A stretch of DNA of 64,000 bases from a virus: IMG/VR virus record IMGVR_UViG_3300020474_000993; one strand, given 5' to 3'. The translations under genes were made by a program, and so were the position numbers. Below, piece by piece: positions 6,030 to 57,453 of the stretch (positions are counted from its first letter, which is position 1; the number at the start of each line of letters is the position of its first letter). The notes below the pieces were generated by a model. The model made no database searches and was not told the origin of the DNA. It worked only from the letters and a program-made list of their open reading frames with translations.

Positions 6030-6037
6030 TATAAATA
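6030..6037 (+). promoter_or_regulatory. Late promoter TATAAATA
   Basis: Consensus upstream of gp13. Confidence 0.8.
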
Positions 6038-19232: not shown

Positions 19233-19274
19233 CAATAAGAGTTGGGACAACCAACCTAAAAACAAAAGTTTTCG

Positions 19275-19301
19275 AGGGAGTCTTAGGACTCCCTTTTTTT
19301 T
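19275..19301 (+). terminator. Intrinsic terminator after gp23
   Basis: AGGGAGTC-TTAG-GACTCCCT followed by a T run. Confidence 0.9.
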
Positions 19302-37358: not shown

Positions 37359-37969
37359 AGATTGAAGTTGGTCAAAAGTTACCAGAAGACATCACTTTCC
37401 ACATGAGGGTAAGGGATGAAAAAATGGTAGAGGCTGGTGATGAAAATCCATATCAGTGGCAACTAGTTAACTCAAGTGACTTGTTCAAGGACAAGAGGGT
37501 TGTACTGTTTGCTTTGCCTGGCGCATTTACTCCAACATGTTCAACATATCAATTACCAGATTATGATAACAACTATGAGTTGTTCAAAAGAAATGGTATT
37601 GATGAAGTATACTGCCTGTCTGTTAATGATAGTTTTGTTATGAACAAATGGGGTGATTGGTTAGACATTGATAATGTAAAACTAATTCCAGATGGAAGTG
37701 GTTTCTTTACAGAAGCTATTGGTGCTTTGGTGAAGAAAGACAACTTAGGATTTGGGCCAAGGTCTTGGAGATATTCAGTCCTTGTCAATGATGGGGTTGT
37801 GGAAGTAGCATTTGTCGAGGAAGGATGTGAAGACGATTGTCCTGCTGACCCATATGAAGTATCTGACCCACTGACCATGATGAATTACATTCAAACTGAA
37901 AGTCCTGTAGGACAACAATATGAGTTAAATCTTCAAGATGGTGCTGGAACAGACGAAACATTTGCATAA
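37355..37969 (+). CDS. Peroxiredoxin (Prx5/type II)
   Basis: LPGAFTPTCS, SVNDSFVM, RSWRYS. Confidence 0.93.
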   Translation: MKIEVGQKLPEDITFHMRVRDEKMVEAGDENPYQWQLVNSSDLFKDKRVVLFALPGAFTPTCSTYQLPDYDNNYELFKRNGIDEVYCLSVNDSFVMNKWGDWLDIDNVKLIPDGSGFFTEAIGALVKKDNLGFGPRSWRYSVLVNDGVVEVAFVEEGCEDDCPADPYEVSDPLTMMNYIQTESPVGQQYELNLQDGAGTDETFA

Positions 37970-38753
37970 AGTTGATTATGATTTAAAACCTTTATCGAAG
38001 GAACTCGCAATCGATTTTATACAGACGCATCATTATTCACCGATGATGCCTAAACTAACAAAGCATTATCTAGGATGTTTTCTCAATGGTGAATTAGTAG
38101 GTGTATTGACTCTAGGCTGGGGAACTCAACCTAGACAGACAATCAATAAAATGTTTACTGGTCTGGAGTCAAAAGATTATTGGGAGATTGGTAAGATGTG
38201 CATGACAGATGAAATGCCAACCAACTCCGAATCACAAATGATATCTCAATCAATAAAATGGATAAAGGAAAATACACCAGAGGTATCGTTCCTTTATACA
38301 ATGGCAGATGGTATCATGGGTAAATGTGGATATGTATATCAGGCAAGTAATTTTCTTTATGGTGGACAATACTTCACTCAAGTATATGAGATAAATGGAG
38401 AGAAGGTTCATCCGAGAGCTACAAGAAAATTATGCGAAGAGAACGCAAGGTTCTCTGGCAAAGACAGGATTTTTTGGTTGACTTCAGACTTTATGAAAGA
38501 GAAGGGAATCAAAAAAATAGAGGGATATATGTTTAGATATATCTTTCCGCTGAATAAGAAGGCAAAAAAATTATTAAAAAAATCAAATATGGAATGGACT
38601 AGGGTATACCCCAAAGACCACAATCTAAAATGGTTTGACAAAACATCCAATCCGAAGTTTGAAATTGAACAACCCCACTTCACATATGAAGAAGTTCTAC
38701 ACAACGCGAGAAACATATCTGGTGGTGGGGCATCTTTAAGAGGTATATTATGA
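37938..38753 (+). CDS. Mom-like DNA adenine-modification enzyme (GNAT fold)
   Basis: HHYS, NSES..IS, TMADG...GYVYQASNFLY.G. Confidence 0.75.
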   Translation: MVLEQTKHLHKVDYDLKPLSKELAIDFIQTHHYSPMMPKLTKHYLGCFLNGELVGVLTLGWGTQPRQTINKMFTGLESKDYWEIGKMCMTDEMPTNSESQMISQSIKWIKENTPEVSFLYTMADGIMGKCGYVYQASNFLYGGQYFTQVYEINGEKVHPRATRKLCEENARFSGKDRIFWLTSDFMKEKGIKKIEGYMFRYIFPLNKKAKKLLKKSNMEWTRVYPKDHNLKWFDKTSNPKFEIEQPHFTYEEVLHNARNISGGGASLRGIL

Positions 38754-39517
38754 GCAAAATTGTTTTAGTATCTGGTGGATTTGACCCACTACATAAGGGA
38801 CACCTTGACCTATTGAAAGAAGCTAAGAAGATGGGTGACCATCTATCGGTAGGTCTCAATAGCGATGCGTGGTTAACTAGAAAGAAGGGGTCACCGTTCA
38901 TGTCACAATGGGACAGAATGGATATGTTGATGGAATTAGAATGTGTTGACCATGTAGTTCCTTTCAATGATGATGACGATACTGCCAAAGACTTTATAGA
39001 AAAAGCATTAGGCACATGGGGAATAGACCACAAGTTTTTATTTGTGAATGGTGGTGACAGGACAGAAGATAATATTCCAGAGATGGAACTGCGAGAAAAG
39101 TTTTCTCATGCTCATTTAGAATTTGTTTTTGGTGTTGGTGGAGATAAAACTTATTCTAGTAGTTTGGTAAACAATGTAGAAAGAGCTTGGGGTGACTATA
39201 AAGTTATTCACGAGGAACAAACTGCTAAGGTAAAAATATTGAATATTGATATTGGTAAAAGTATTAGTTACCAAAGACATTTTTATCGTGGAGAAATCTG
39301 GCATATCGTAAATGGTATGGCAATGATTAAAACCAGCAAAGGTAGGTTAGAGAATTATACATACGACTACTTGACTTCTGGTCAACACTTTAGTATAATA
39401 CCCTACGAATGGCATCAAGTGACAAATGTGGGTAATGAACCCCTAAAGATAATTGAAATTCAACATGGTTCTTATGTCGAAGAAGATGATATTGAACGCG
39501 AGGAGATAGTTCATTGA
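38750..39517 (+). CDS. Cytidylyl/adenylyltransferase (RfaE-like) fused to a mannose-6-P isomerase-type cupin
   Basis: GGFDPLHKGH, NGGDR; R.WG.Y, SYQRH..R.E.W, IIEIQ.G...EDDI.R. Confidence 0.85.
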   Translation: MSKIVLVSGGFDPLHKGHLDLLKEAKKMGDHLSVGLNSDAWLTRKKGSPFMSQWDRMDMLMELECVDHVVPFNDDDDTAKDFIEKALGTWGIDHKFLFVNGGDRTEDNIPEMELREKFSHAHLEFVFGVGGDKTYSSSLVNNVERAWGDYKVIHEEQTAKVKILNIDIGKSISYQRHFYRGEIWHIVNGMAMIKTSKGRLENYTYDYLTSGQHFSIIPYEWHQVTNVGNEPLKIIEIQHGSYVEEDDIEREEIVH

Positions 39518-44258: not shown

Positions 44259-44285
44259 GGGGGGCGATATTTGCCCCCCATTTTT
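44259..44285 (+). terminator. Intrinsic terminator after hsp20
   Basis: GGGGGGC...GCCCCCC followed by ATTTTT. Confidence 0.85.
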
Positions 44286-48586: not shown

Positions 48587-49925
48587 CGAAGATTATGTCA
48601 GACAAGCAATTGCACATTTAAAGGCATCTTATTTCCTAGATGCTGAGTATCGTGAGGTATTCAGATGTATTCGTGATTATGTCACGGCATACAATTCCCC
48701 ACCACAAGCAAGCGCGCTTAAAATTGCACTACAAGATAACAGAAAGATTACTGAAGACCTTTACGAAAAATGTGAGGAACTTATTAATGGTCTTGGTGAA
48801 TATGAGGTTGATAACAGATGGTTGATTGACCAAACAGAAAAATTCTGTAAGGACAAGGCAGTTTACAATGCTATCATGCAATCTATTCAGATTATCGATG
48901 GACAGGATAAAACATATTCAGTAGATTCTCTGCCTTCTATATTGTCAGATGCTCTTAGTGTTGGTTTTGATAATAACATTGGTCACGATTATGTTGGTGA
49001 CGCGGAAGCACGATTTGATTTCTATCACAGGCACGAAGAAAAATTACCATTCGACTTAGAATATTTCAACAAGATTACTGAAGGTGGATTGATAAACAAG
49101 ACACTCAATATTGCTCTTGCTGGTACAGGTGTGGGTAAATCTCTTTTCATGTGTCATGTGGGTGCAGCCATGATTGCTCAAGGTAAGAATGTTTTGTATA
49201 TCACATTAGAGATGGCAGAGGAAAGAATCGCTGAAAGAATCGATGCGAACATGATGGATGTTTCCATGCAAGATTTGAGAGACCTATCCAAGTCTATGTA
49301 CACAGACCGTATTAAGAAAATTCAAAACAAAGTTGATGGCAGATTGATTGTTAAAGAATATCCAACTGCAACTGCCCATGCTGGTCATTTCAGAGCACTT
49401 CTTGAAGAGTTGAAACTCAAACAAAACTTTTCTCCAGACATAATTTTTATCGATTATCTAAATATTTGTGTGAGTCAACGACTCCGAAATAATGCTGGTG
49501 CAAACTCATATACCATAGTCAAGGCAATTGCTGAGGAACTAAGGGGACTGGCAGTAGAGTATGATTTACCAATAGTATCCGCAACCCAGACCACGCGAGG
49601 TGGTTTTAACAACAGTGATGTTGACTTGACAGATACTTCAGAAAGTTTTGGTTTGCCTGCTACTGCTGACTTGATGTTTGCTCTTATAAGTACAGAGGAA
49701 TTAGAACAACAAGGTCACATGATGGTTAAACAATTGAAGAATAGATATAGTGACCCGACAAGAAACAAACGATTTATGATTGGAGTTGATAGGGCGAAGA
49801 TGAGATTGTATGATTTAGAAGATGCTCAACAAAATCTAGTAGACTCTGGACAGGTAGATGTACAGCCAGTTTTTGACCAAGGTGCCTTTGGACAAAGATT
49901 AGGCTTGGGGGATATTAAAGTATAA
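48546..49925 (+). CDS. gp41: Replicative helicase gp41
   Basis: AGTGVGKS, IDYLNI, SESFGLPATAD, KQLKNRY. Confidence 0.97.
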   Translation: MRLEQTILSNLIHNEDYVRQAIAHLKASYFLDAEYREVFRCIRDYVTAYNSPPQASALKIALQDNRKITEDLYEKCEELINGLGEYEVDNRWLIDQTEKFCKDKAVYNAIMQSIQIIDGQDKTYSVDSLPSILSDALSVGFDNNIGHDYVGDAEARFDFYHRHEEKLPFDLEYFNKITEGGLINKTLNIALAGTGVGKSLFMCHVGAAMIAQGKNVLYITLEMAEERIAERIDANMMDVSMQDLRDLSKSMYTDRIKKIQNKVDGRLIVKEYPTATAHAGHFRALLEELKLKQNFSPDIIFIDYLNICVSQRLRNNAGANSYTIVKAIAEELRGLAVEYDLPIVSATQTTRGGFNNSDVDLTDTSESFGLPATADLMFALISTEELEQQGHMMVKQLKNRYSDPTRNKRFMIGVDRAKMRLYDLEDAQQNLVDSGQVDVQPVFDQGAFGQRLGLGDIKV

Positions 49926-49933: not shown

Positions 49934-50317
49934 ATGATTAGTAAAGTATTATTAGGTGTAATATTAGCTGGAGGCTTTGTTGGGTATTTGTACTACACAA
50001 ATACGCAAGCAGAACTTATTGAGCTCCGAGAATATAATATGGCGATGGAATTACAAGTCGCTACACAAAATGATACCATAGATAAGATGTCTAAACAATA
50101 CGAAACACAGGCAAAAGCGCTTGGTGAGTTGACTTCAAAGAATGCTGTTATTGAAGCAGAGATGACAAGATACCTTGACATTTTCCGCAGACATGACCTT
50201 AGTAAACTTGCAGCTGCTAAACCAGGCCTTATTGAACCAAGGGTGAACAATGCGACAAAAGATGTATTCGACAGTCTCGAAACTGATTCCAGTTTTGAGT
50301 TTGATACTGATAATTAA
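49934..50317 (+). CDS. Putative i-spanin
   Basis: N-terminal TM helix plus coiled coil; KPGLIE..VN; overlapped by a lipoprotein gene. Confidence 0.7.
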   Translation: MISKVLLGVILAGGFVGYLYYTNTQAELIELREYNMAMELQVATQNDTIDKMSKQYETQAKALGELTSKNAVIEAEMTRYLDIFRRHDLSKLAAAKPGLIEPRVNNATKDVFDSLETDSSFEFDTDN

Positions 50318-50681
50318 CGGTTGTAGTTTAATACCAAAACAACCGCGTGAGGTAGAAATCAAAACGATAGAGGTGCGTGTGCCTATACAGCATCCTGTAT
50401 ATCCTCGACCAATAGATATGAAAGAACCAAAGTGGTATGTTGTATCTGACAAAAACTTAGACGAATTCCTAGTTAAAATAGAAAAAGAATCTGGAAAGAT
50501 GGTCTTTATGGCAATGTCTGTACCAGATTACGAATTAATGGCGTATAATCTCCAAGAGATTAAACGATATGTAAAAGAAACCAAAGAAGTGATAGTGTAT
50601 TACCGAACCGTTATGTCTGATGATGAAGAAAAAGAAAAAGTCACAGGAGAGAAAGATGACGGAAGAGGAAACAAAAACTAA
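50250..50681 (+). CDS. Putative o-spanin lipoprotein
   Basis: Lipobox-like LIINGC, Pro-rich segment, overlaps the i-spanin 3' end. Confidence 0.7.
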   Translation: MRQKMYSTVSKLIPVLSLILIINGCSLIPKQPREVEIKTIEVRVPIQHPVYPRPIDMKEPKWYVVSDKNLDEFLVKIEKESGKMVFMAMSVPDYELMAYNLQEIKRYVKETKEVIVYYRTVMSDDEEKEKVTGEKDDGRGNKN

Positions 50682-51954: not shown

Positions 51955-52365
51955 ATGAGTAGATGCAGAATGGATTCAACTTGTGGAGACACAATTGCTG
52001 AAAAAGGTTATCTTAAAACCCAGATAGAAAAATGGGAAAAGATATCCGATGAATTATCTTCAACAGTTAGTCGAGTCAATGATGAGACTAAAGTTATCAA
52101 GTACAACGATGTTCCTAGTAACATTTACTTGAAGGTTGAAAGTATTGCTGAAGAGTTGAAACTTTCTGACGCACAGAAAAAGGAACTTGAATCTAATATT
52201 GAATATCAAGTTCGCCAAGTGCGTGAGGCAGTTAACAATCTTGAGTCTGAAATTTACAAACTAGTAGAACCATTTGAAGAGTTGCAAAGGGATGCTGAAA
52301 ACAAGAAAGATGATTTTGAGTACGAACTTGATGACTTGGAATGGGAACTAGAAAAGGCTTCATAA
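51955..52365 (+). CDS. Acidic coiled-coil hypothetical protein
   Basis: GGAGG RBS. Confidence 0.6.
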   Translation: MSRCRMDSTCGDTIAEKGYLKTQIEKWEKISDELSSTVSRVNDETKVIKYNDVPSNIYLKVESIAEELKLSDAQKKELESNIEYQVRQVREAVNNLESEIYKLVEPFEELQRDAENKKDDFEYELDDLEWELEKAS

Positions 52366-52371
52366 ATATTA

Positions 52372-52456
52372 TAGGCAATTACAGAGTGCCTGCTAAAGTC
52401 TGTAAAGGTTGATGACCGAACATCCATGAGGGGAATGAAAACGCCCCTCGTCTTTT
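52372..52456 (+). ncRNA. Candidate pseudoknotted small RNA or leader ending in a terminator
   Basis: AGGCA/TGCCT stem; loop TTACAGA pairs with TCTGTAA; GATG/CATC hairpin; GAGGGG/CCCCTC followed by TCTTTT. Confidence 0.55.
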
Positions 52457-52471
52457 ATATATGGAGAAATT

Positions 52472-52744
52472 ATGAATCAAAATGATATAGTATCGGTGAT
52501 TACACCCGCTGGTGAGTTTATAGGTAAACTTGCTTTAGAAACAGACACGCGATTGAAATTGAATGACCCACGCATGTTGATTACAACAAATGAAGGCATG
52601 GGGTTTGCTAGGGGAGTTTGTCTTACTGGTGTTGAAAATCCAGATGAGATGACTTTTTATTCTGGCGGGATTGTTTTTGTTTCCCCGACCAATGAAGATG
52701 TACAAAAATCTTATCGTAAATTTACAAGTGGGATTATAACATGA
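52472..52744 (+). CDS. Sm/Hfq-like fold hypothetical protein
   Basis: DIVSV.T..GEFIGKL......L.DPR pattern. Confidence 0.55.
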   Translation: MNQNDIVSVITPAGEFIGKLALETDTRLKLNDPRMLITTNEGMGFARGVCLTGVENPDEMTFYSGGIVFVSPTNEDVQKSYRKFTSGIIT

Positions 52745-55084: not shown

Positions 55085-55117
55085 TATAAATATAGGGGAC
55101 AATAAGTCCCCTTTTTT
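55085..55117 (+). terminator. Terminator AGGGGAC-AATAA-GTCCCCT followed by a T run, abutting late promoter TATAAATA (55085-55092)
   Basis: Perfect stem plus U tract. Confidence 0.85.
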
Positions 55118-55615: not shown

Positions 55616-56869
55616 ATGGTCGGATTTTTATCATATCTAAACGAAGATGCACAGGGCAAGAACCTACATCTTGAACACCTAGAAGACGAAATATTAAATT
55701 TCGGAATAGGTGGAGCTCGTGGTGCAATTAATTTCTTACAGGCATTGAGAGATATGTTGTCGGGAAGTTCTCGTTCATCCGTAAATATGACAGTTAAATG
55801 GGACGGTGCTCCTGCTATATTTGCTGGTATTGACCCCAGTGATGGTAAATTTTTTGTTGCTAAGAAAGGTGTATTCAATAAGACACCACTATTATATAAG
55901 TCCACACAAGAAATAAACAAAGACAGTAAATTGCCACAGGCATTAAAACCCGCCTTTACAATCGCGTTACAAGAATTTAGCAAACTCGGCATCAAGAGTG
56001 TATTACAGGGTGACTTAATGTTTACACAGGCATCTCTTGAATCTGAAACTATAGATGGTGAGAGGTACACCACATTCCAACCAAACACTATAGTCTATGC
56101 TATTCCAAAGATGTCAGAACTGGAACAAAGAATTAAAGCTGCTAAGATTGGTGTTGTTTGGCACACATCATATACAGGTAACACATTAGAAGGTATGAAG
56201 GCATCTTTTGGTGTAAACATTAGTAGTCTTAGAAAATCAAGAAGTGTCTGGATGGATGATGCTAGTTATAGAGATACTAGTGGAACTTCTACATTTACGC
56301 AAACAGAGACATCTGCTGTTACTACAAAACTATCCGAGTGTGGTAGAATATTTAAGAAAATAAATTCAGCACAATTAAACAATTTCTTAAAATTTCAAAA
56401 TGGGTTTTCTGGAAAAATGGTTGGCGCCAATATCAAAACCTATAATAATTCAAAAGTAAAGGTTGGTGCGAAGATAACTAATGTCTCTGGCCATGTGTCT
56501 GGATACGCAAAGTGGGTAGAAGACAAATTTGATACAGAGATAAATAAGTTAAAAACGGAACAGTCACAGAAAAAACTAGAGATAAAAAAGAAAGAAACTT
56601 TAAGGGAACTAAATCAATATACTGCTCTTCTTATAAATGTTATCAATTTTCAGAACTCTATGGTAGATGCTAAAATGATAATTGTTAGTAAACTAAATAG
56701 AGTAAAACAGTTGATGGATACTTTTGTCAGAACTAAACAAGGATTTAAAGTTACAAATCCAGAAGGATATGTTGCAATCGATAGGGTGTCTGGTAATGCT
56801 GTTAAACTGGTAGACAGAATGGAATTTAGTTATAATAACTTTACTGCAATTAAGGCGTGGGATAGATGA
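55616..56869 (+). CDS. DUF6267-like protein with ATP-dependent ligase/NTase motifs
   Basis: NLHLEHLED, KWDG, QGDLMF, EGYV, VKLV; late promoter at 55577-55584. Confidence 0.7.
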   Translation: MVGFLSYLNEDAQGKNLHLEHLEDEILNFGIGGARGAINFLQALRDMLSGSSRSSVNMTVKWDGAPAIFAGIDPSDGKFFVAKKGVFNKTPLLYKSTQEINKDSKLPQALKPAFTIALQEFSKLGIKSVLQGDLMFTQASLESETIDGERYTTFQPNTIVYAIPKMSELEQRIKAAKIGVVWHTSYTGNTLEGMKASFGVNISSLRKSRSVWMDDASYRDTSGTSTFTQTETSAVTTKLSECGRIFKKINSAQLNNFLKFQNGFSGKMVGANIKTYNNSKVKVGAKITNVSGHVSGYAKWVEDKFDTEINKLKTEQSQKKLEIKKKETLRELNQYTALLINVINFQNSMVDAKMIIVSKLNRVKQLMDTFVRTKQGFKVTNPEGYVAIDRVSGNAVKLVDRMEFSYNNFTAIKAWDR

Positions 56870-57453
56870 AAACATTAGTATATGCATTTGGAAGGATGAA
56901 CCCGCCTACTGCTGGTCATGGAAAACTTGTACAGAAGGTAAAACAACTTGCTCAAAGAGAAAGAGCAGACCACCTTATTGTAGTTAGTCACAGTCAAGAT
57001 AAACATAAGAACCCATTGACCCCACAGAAAAAAGTTGCCCATCTTAAAAAGATGTTCACAGGAACTAAATTCAAGGCATCTGATAGAGTCAACCCAAACT
57101 TCATAAAACAATTAGGTCTACTTACAGGAAAGTATGATAAGGTTATTATGGTTGCTGGTTCAGATAGGGTTCAAGAATTCCAGAGGATACTGGATAGATA
57201 CAATGGTAAGGATTTTAAATTTGACGAAATAGATGTAATCTCTGCTGGACAAAGAGACCCAGACGCGGAAGGCGTAACTGGTATAAGTGCTAGTAAGATG
57301 AGACTGTTCGCCAAGAACAATGATTTTAACTCATTCAAAAGAGGGTTGCCCGCTGGTTATAGTGGGTCTCAAGCTTTATTCAAAGATGTGAAGAGTGGGA
57401 TGGAGTTAAAGGAAGATAAACACTACACTTTTTCACAATTTTTAAGAGGATAA
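56866..57453 (+). CDS. HIGH-motif nucleotidyltransferase (cytidylyltransferase/NMNAT-like)
   Basis: FGRMNPPTAGH, GSDR, SASKMR. Confidence 0.85.
   Translation: MKTLVYAFGRMNPPTAGHGKLVQKVKQLAQRERADHLIVVSHSQDKHKNPLTPQKKVAHLKKMFTGTKFKASDRVNPNFIKQLGLLTGKYDKVIMVAGSDRVQEFQRILDRYNGKDFKFDEIDVISAGQRDPDAEGVTGISASKMRLFAKNNDFNSFKRGLPAGYSGSQALFKDVKSGMELKEDKHYTFSQFLRG

Follow-up and report, generated by a model that had tools for sequence, protein, structure and literature searches.

A four-helix pseudoknotted RNA at a gene boundary of uncultured marine T4-like phages: a candidate RNA family absent from catalogues

T4-like phages are among the most abundant viruses of the sea, and to our knowledge very few non-coding RNAs have been described for them. 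What, then, is the RNA of about 78–80 nt that an uncultured marine T4-like phage encodes at 52373-52449, in the spacer that separates two of its small genes, and what does it do there? It has four helices, two of which interleave to make an H-type pseudoknot. The stretch of DNA analyzed here, hereafter the window, is 64 kb in length and carries the genes for gp43 polymerase, UvsX, gp41 helicase, a clamp loader, an SbcD-like nuclease, and tail and head proteins of a T4-like phage; the polymerase shares only 47% identity with its cyanomyovirus counterparts. The element is a well-supported candidate RNA family: all the helices covary, the core is unusually rigid, and it is absent from the catalogues.

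A preliminary description made from the sequence of the window had noticed a pseudoknot, a small hairpin, a GC-rich hairpin, and an octamer CATAAATA at this locus, and all of them are indeed where it had placed them (Table 1). In the window, L2 of the pseudoknot consists of one nucleotide, and three nucleotides separate P3 from P4. Is this pairing more than what the base composition of the spacer yields by itself? When the 106-nt spacer was shuffled with its dinucleotides preserved, S1 of at least 5 plus S2 of at least 7 Watson–Crick pairs appeared in 7 of 20,000 shuffles. Minimum-free-energy folding, from which pseudoknots are left out, was uninformative (z = -1.45).

Table 1. Parts of the RNA element and its immediate neighbors in the window.
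Feature	Position	Strand	Remarks
TAA stop codon of the upstream 136-aa coiled-coil ORF (51955-52365)	52363-52365	+	CATAAATA (52361-68) is the context of this stop codon
S1, 5′ strand, of the H-type pseudoknot	52373-52377	+	Pairs with 52387-52391; 5 bp; covarying, with C:G replaced by U:A at one pair, and A:U by G:U
L1, single nucleotide crossing S2	52378	+	1 nt in 16 of 17 variants
S2, 5′ strand	52379-52385	+	Pairs with 52399-52405; changes on both sides at all 7 pairs across the family
S1, 3′ strand	52387-52391	+	Pairs with 52373-52377
L3, A-rich 7-nt linker crossing S1	52392-52398	+	Consensus RCUAAAG; AAG invariant, other letters nearly so
S2, 3′ strand	52399-52405	+	Pairs with 52379-52385
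Junction AGGKU, 5 nt	52406-52410	+	GG invariant
P3, 4-bp hairpin with hexaloop ACCGAA	52411-52424	+	Stem 52411-14 / 52421-24
P4, 6-bp GC-rich hairpin with conserved 10-nt loop containing UGAAAA	52428-52449	+	Stem 52428-33 / 52444-49; 5 of 6 pairs covary
U-rich tail	52450-52459	+	With P4, a moderate intrinsic-terminator-like site; tail in 4 of 7 family types
GGAG Shine–Dalgarno and ATG of a 90-aa Sm/LSm-like gene (52472-52744)	52463-52474	+	Neighbor, outside the RNA

Stronger evidence comes from comparison. Relatives were gathered by a search with the 90-aa protein encoded downstream and then by DNA-pattern scans of IMG/VR and metagenomes, and the element was found in about 60 contigs of uncultured marine T4-like phages. 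These contain 17 distinct element sequences with seven different sets of pseudoknot stems. In all the 17 variants the four helices, which were marked by position only, are paired with zero mismatches, S2 ranging from 5 to 8 bp in length. In an alignment made with a covariance model, 94% of the cells pair and 16 of the 22 pairs are changed on both sides, and none of 500 shuffles matched this degree of pairing and of both-side change; when the partners were slid by 1–3 columns as controls, pairing was only 35–50%. It is to be noted that the support for S1 is independent, since S1 was absent from the model with which the alignment was built. A check of covariation thus finds compensatory changes in every helix, and the compact pseudoknotted RNA that had been proposed from the window alone is real in this sense. 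Because of the G:U pairs, the fold is specific to the plus strand, namely the strand of the genes.

In contrast to the stems of the pseudoknot, other parts of the element hardly change. The junction AGGKU, the loop of P3, UGAAAA in the loop of P4, and CUAAAG in L3 are near-invariant. Positions 3–8 and 10 of the P4 loop (UGAAAA-N-G) do not vary at all, and the ACCGAA loop of P3 is invariant with one exception, a G-to-U change in the second copy of the contig L024 (ACCUAA). The stem of P3 is likewise invariant except in one clade, where GAUG/CAUC is replaced by AGUG/CACU, a double compensatory change. Even when the letters regarded as invariant were freed in relaxed pattern scans, no member altered in the CC of the loop or in the C after GAA was found, and the clade with the altered P3 stem was the only one of its kind. 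Since the gp41 proteins of the carrier phages are only 57–94% identical, the carriers are far apart, and the core must be under strong selection.

Does such an RNA belong to a family that is already known? The preliminary description had pointed to Rfam as the place to look, and no Rfam family matches the element: the sole match in the 5 kb searched with Rfam 15 was a chance snoU49 elsewhere on the DNA, and the sole match in 126 nt at E of 10 was an 11-bit fragment of PK-repZ over the tail. Comparison with cultured phages by blastn against 50,697 phage records gave chance matches only, and a scan for the core in the GTDB representative genomes gave three chance matches in coding-like DNA, the element itself being absent from them. 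The literal sequence of the core led to nothing relevant in the papers searched. Within the 64-kb window, neither further copies nor an antisense target were found. Neither Rfam nor the cultured phages nor the searched papers contain this family; its pseudoknot is of a known type. Parts of the element may resemble loop C of 5S rRNA, the anticodon loop of tRNA-Phe, lambda boxB, the GAAA-tetraloop receptor, and the box C/D k-turn, but these likenesses do not serve as evidence here. Rfam models for 5S rRNA and tRNA gave no match, and tRNA and tmRNA were ruled out by ARAGORN together with the Rfam tRNA and tmRNA models. A model match at 17.8 bits in another contig, G003, was discarded as junk.

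The position of the element on the genomes is as regular as its fold. Each of 31 distinct loci has a same-strand ORF that ends 0–13 nt before S1, with the stop codon overlapping S1 in some relatives, and the ORF downstream at these loci nearly always starts 18–32 nt past P4. The flanking ORFs themselves are unrelated: seven families are found upstream and eight downstream, the downstream genes being unrelated hypothetical ORFs. The carriers are syntenic T4-like phages, and the element always lies between gp41 and a pair of phrog_455 and cytidylyltransferase genes, within a variable stretch of small genes. There is one copy in a 161-kb contig that is 91% complete, and also one each in three other contigs. 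As for the phrog_455 pair of the window, adjacent genes for 417-aa and 195-aa proteins (55616-57453), the second of which is cytidylyltransferase-like, match two halves of the phrog_455 profile and may together represent a fused phage enzyme that has been split.

In two contigs, a pair of element copies brackets an inserted gene for a CspA-like cold-shock protein (L024:7650-8082 on the minus strand, and L288:4472-4904). P3 and P4 are common to both copies of these pairs while the pseudoknot stems differ, an arrangement which, judging from the sequences, looks like exchange or insertion of a cassette at the conserved core. The element is far from universal: 78 of 79 further T4-like contigs, whose gp41 is about 60% identical, are without it in the 5 kb, or less at contig ends, downstream of gp41. 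Such a patchy distribution is as compatible with an accessory or anti-host RNA as with a housekeeping boundary signal. Apart from these carriers, three AT-rich viral contigs (L044:2413-2459, L051:1078-1138, and L071 near 9149) have, after a sigma-70-like promoter, only the P3 hairpin, which is preceded by GGGU and directly followed by a strong ribosome-binding site of unrelated genes. These hairpins may be a separate 5′-UTR family sharing the 18-nt core, or may have arisen by chance.

How is the element transcribed? The preliminary description took CATAAATA for a late-like promoter in front of the RNA. This is not sustained: such variants occur at chance level, as seen for the 7-of-8 form VATAAATA (13 sites vs 16.3 expected), the motif is gone in relatives, and the stop codon sometimes overlaps S1 there. 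Exact TATAAATA, on the other hand, occurs 15 times in the window vs 5.2 expected, always on the plus strand and before ORFs, mostly 10–45 nt from the start, and the phage of the window clearly uses a T4-type late promoter of this exact form. Sites at 6030, 10838, 16632, 49921, 54135, and 55577 are among them. The region 49934-50681, just after the late promoter at 49921, holds an Rz-like spanin gene and, overlapping this gene, an ORF that carries a lipoprotein signal and is possibly an o-spanin. No promoter-like site was found on the plus strand in or beside the element, the upstream flank being coding and variable. Since there is no room for a promoter between P4 and the next start codon, and the late promoters nearest to the element are those at 49921 and 54135, the genes downstream need read-through.

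A terminator had also been claimed to close the RNA, and this claim survives in part. In the window, a GC-rich hairpin is indeed followed by a U-rich tail, and P4 with this tail is one of only four terminator-like sites between genes on the plus strand of the 64 kb. The U-tract is, however, present in only four of the seven types and absent in three (L022/L024 and L226 types), and the conserved 10-nt loop of P4 is atypical for an intrinsic terminator. With three types devoid of the tract, termination cannot be the conserved core function. Strong canonical terminators between genes are only three on the plus strand of the window (19274-19295, 44259-44279, and 55094-55112); of these, 19274-19295 and 55094-55112 each adjoin a late promoter, and 55094-55112 has the form of a terminator on both strands. 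Metatranscriptome contigs equivalent to 52195-52446, from a relative with a compensatory pair in S2, and to 52281-52428 join the upstream ORF to the element, and an RNA-library contig (52393-52543) begins within the element, passes P4, and reaches the downstream gene. These fit co-transcription and read-through, but the support is weak because they are not reads but assembled Logan contigs of depth 2–6, which cannot show ends, strand, or level.

What can be the function of an element with such properties? The explanation we regard as best, with a probability of about 0.35, is that it is a cis-acting module of the gene boundary. Its structure, conservation, position, copy number, and independence from the flanking genes are established by the comparisons above, and the functional steps that follow are inferred. 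The element would be transcribed within a polycistronic message of the small-gene region downstream of gp41, and the pseudoknot at the stop codon would serve as a roadblock or boundary against nucleases or ribosomes coming from upstream. The L1 of one nucleotide, the 7-bp S2, and the A-rich L3 are those of the mechanically robust type of pseudoknot. P4, with the U-tract in most lineages, would be a leaky intrinsic terminator and a stabilizer of the 3′-end, and the next genes would be reached by read-through past it. The invariant AGGKU, ACCGAA, UGAAAA, and CUAAAG may hold the fold as a tertiary core and may offer a sequence-specific docking site for a putative factor, which would determine the amount of message that continues or survives. 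The conserved core would, as a by-product, become a seam at which gene cassettes are swapped. If this is the case, phages insulate and meter neighboring genes on long messages by means of an RNA fold, and the type of the fold would be common to T4 gene 32 and to RNA viruses that stop exonucleases. Such a boundary module accounts for the position, the independence from the flanks, and the partial terminator, but not by itself for the rigid core. About 26 invariant nucleotides are more than passive punctuation calls for, so a partner or a chemistry is missing from this explanation, and for this reason the rival explanations discussed below are kept.

Known RNAs with a similar architecture are instructive here. 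The pseudoknot of T4 gene 32 is also of the H-type and likewise occupies an intergenic spacer of a T4-type phage. When it was recomputed (NC_000866; PMC535899), its L1 was a single A, its S2 7 bp, and its L2 0 nt, and the topology of the element is equal, with 0–1 nt between S2 and S1 in both and a total of 28 nt in T4 gene 32 vs 33 nt in the element. The T4 pseudoknot heads the leader of gene 32, and the roughly 40 nucleotides behind it are unstructured, contain UUAAA repeats, and are coated by gp32, whereas in the element two structured hairpins with invariant loops follow and the downstream genes vary. Moreover, gene 32 of a close relative is located elsewhere in the genome behind a 17-nt leader that has no pseudoknot. 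Thus, the element is not a gene 32 operator, and the analogy with T4 that had been drawn for this locus does not extend to an operator of that type.

A second architecture to be compared is coremin (xrRNA-C) of eukaryotic RNA viruses, in which a pseudoknot and a hairpin stall Xrn1 and ribosomes (PMC6546385; PMC10321173). Both coremin and the element have a small pseudoknot with an L1 of 1 nt and a linker with a run of AAA (GUUAAA in coremin and GCUAAA in the element), both have a hairpin of at least 4 bp after the pseudoknot, and both lie just behind an ORF. The AAA run of the linker is essential in coremin, and L3 of the element keeps CUAAAG. There are differences as well. Hairpin 1 of coremin has 3–5 bp and a YGAD loop of 4 (or 6) nt, while the loop of S1 in the element is 9 nt, 7 of which are in S2. 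S2 of coremin has three pairs that are often non-canonical, in contrast to the seven Watson–Crick pairs in the element. The second hairpin comes within 1 nt and can be of any sequence in coremin, but comes 5 nt later with a near-fixed sequence, P3, in the element. Finally, the hosts of coremin are eukaryotic, and those of the element are bacteria, which do not have Xrn1. By analogy, the element may work like coremin, although it is not a member of that class.

The genomic placement of the element recalls boundary cassettes that are already known in phages. PeSL (promoter-early stem-loop) cassettes of T4-type phages are conserved regulatory units with a terminator stem-loop, and both PeSLs and the element are found in hyperplastic regions of small genes, as seams for gene gain and loss (PMC2839356). 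The element differs in that it has no sigma-70-like promoter part and occurs once per genome, while PeSLs occur many times; in addition, an RNA pseudoknot, an invariant core, and covariation specific to one strand set it apart from PeSLs.

If the boundary module leaves the core unexplained, what else might the element be? Small pseudoknot aptamers beside terminators are well known, and one can imagine that the pseudoknot, P3, and the P4 loop make up an aptamer for a metabolite or an ion and that P4 with the U-tract gates read-through, namely that the element is a new riboswitch or attenuator, as was among the suggestions of the preliminary description. Covarying helices with invariant junctions and loops are an aptamer-like pattern, and a terminator-like hairpin is followed by a Shine–Dalgarno sequence with no promoter between them. 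The element is comparable in size to the preQ1-I, SAM-II/V, fluoride, and HMP-PP class riboswitches and has, as they do, a pseudoknot core, conserved junctions, and a terminator-like hairpin next to it. It departs from them by the lack of any Rfam match even at E of 10 on 126 nt and of a switch helix, and by having no downstream gene class in common. Indeed, there is neither a conserved helix competing with P4 nor a covarying partner for either strand of P4, which leaves no classical switch to be seen; the U-tract is missing in three of the seven types, and among the eight unrelated families of downstream ORFs no gene class recurs. We therefore consider a riboswitch unlikely. An explanation that we hold to be equally doubtful is that the element is a stand-alone RNA of about 80 nt of a new class that acts in trans: it would be trimmed from the message and accumulate as a stable species, much like the subgenomic RNAs that xrRNAs produce, with the pseudoknot stopping 5′–3′ decay and P4 closing the 3′-end. 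The ACCGAA and UGAAAA loops would sequester a conserved factor of the host or of its defence; in a variant of this idea, the core would be that of a new ribozyme or aptamer. The pseudoknot at the 5′ edge and the terminator-like hairpin at the 3′ edge suit such an RNA, as do the independence from flanking genes, the letter-perfect core in spite of a patchy, accessory distribution, and the richness of the surrounding region in small accessory genes. Against it, no promoter is conserved, the element alone is not enriched among the RNA-library contigs, which are assembled and of depth 2–6, and it is single-copy with no tandem repeats like those of ToxI. Furthermore, P3 alters four letters with its pairs kept, which argues against an antisense seed in P3. 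An antitoxin mimic of the ToxI type, another of the earlier suggestions and one that falls under this explanation, finds no backing: the tandem repeats of about 34–45 nt are missing, the element is single-copy, and Rfam gives no match. Were the trans-acting explanation true, a DNA phage would be making an RNA decoy for takeover of the host or against its defence.

Two further explanations turn on what happens to the message itself. The element could be a small self-cleaving ribozyme of a new class that cuts the polycistronic message at the boundary, since a compact pseudoknot of about 80 nt with an invariant core and no gene link, carried by a phage, is the usual profile of small ribozymes. 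It is improbable in our estimation: no Rfam ribozyme model matches, and two RNA-library contigs span the region from the pseudoknot to P3 and a third that from P3 to P4, all uncut, although such assembled contigs are weak evidence. If the core does bind a host factor or a ligand, or cleaves itself, the element would represent a new functional class of RNA. The other explanation starts from an AUG in P3 (52412), which in most types shares its reading frame with the UGA in the P4 loop, so that a ribosome translating a mini-ORF (MTEHP...) would melt P3 and P4 in the manner of leader-peptide attenuation. The clade with the altered P3 has GUG in place of AUG and a synonymous change in the His codon, which speaks for this explanation. 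The Thr and Glu codons, however, show no synonymous variation across seven diverged types, codon 3 is UAA in the second L024 copy, the position of the stop shifts among 5, 6, and 8 codons, and no more than 3 nt separate the SD-like AGG from the AUG. Judging from these codons, the mini-ORF is unlikely, and attenuation by its translation is very improbable.

What about the gene that follows in the window? The preliminary description had called the 90-aa protein encoded at 52472-52744 Sm-like, and rightly so: its structure model has a pLDDT of 92.7, and the best matches of the model are all Sm/LSm proteins, with TM of 0.71–0.72 to PDB 3BY7, an LSm-like protein from a marine metagenome. This model was made with an alignment of 46 sequences, a version with six sequences having given a pLDDT of 48 and being unusable. 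It had also been suggested that the RNA is a ligand of this protein, and since the Sm/LSm-like gene starts 22 nt past P4 in the window and in 12 relatives, and the predicted fold of its product (TM 0.71 to 3BY7) is Sm/LSm-like, an operator or ligand can be imagined. The distribution of the two speaks otherwise, for each occurs without the other. Nine close relatives keep the RNA while the Sm-like gene is deleted, and a 137-kb contig (G002) also has the RNA without the gene. Conversely, the 122-kb contig G003 and six other loci have the gene without the RNA, and homologues with 64–72% identity lie 3–4 nt behind other genes near ribonucleotide reductase, again with no RNA. The operator or ligand explanation is thus largely refuted by distribution, and we give it next to no weight. 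At least 77 homologues of the protein exist, and the genes for it adjoin those of ThyX and ribonucleotide reductase in other marine phages. Elsewhere in the window (37938-39517), a Mom-like DNA-modification gene precedes a single gene that has both heptose kinase/adenylyltransferase-like and cysteine-dioxygenase-like parts, and the two genes may be a module for DNA hypermodification.
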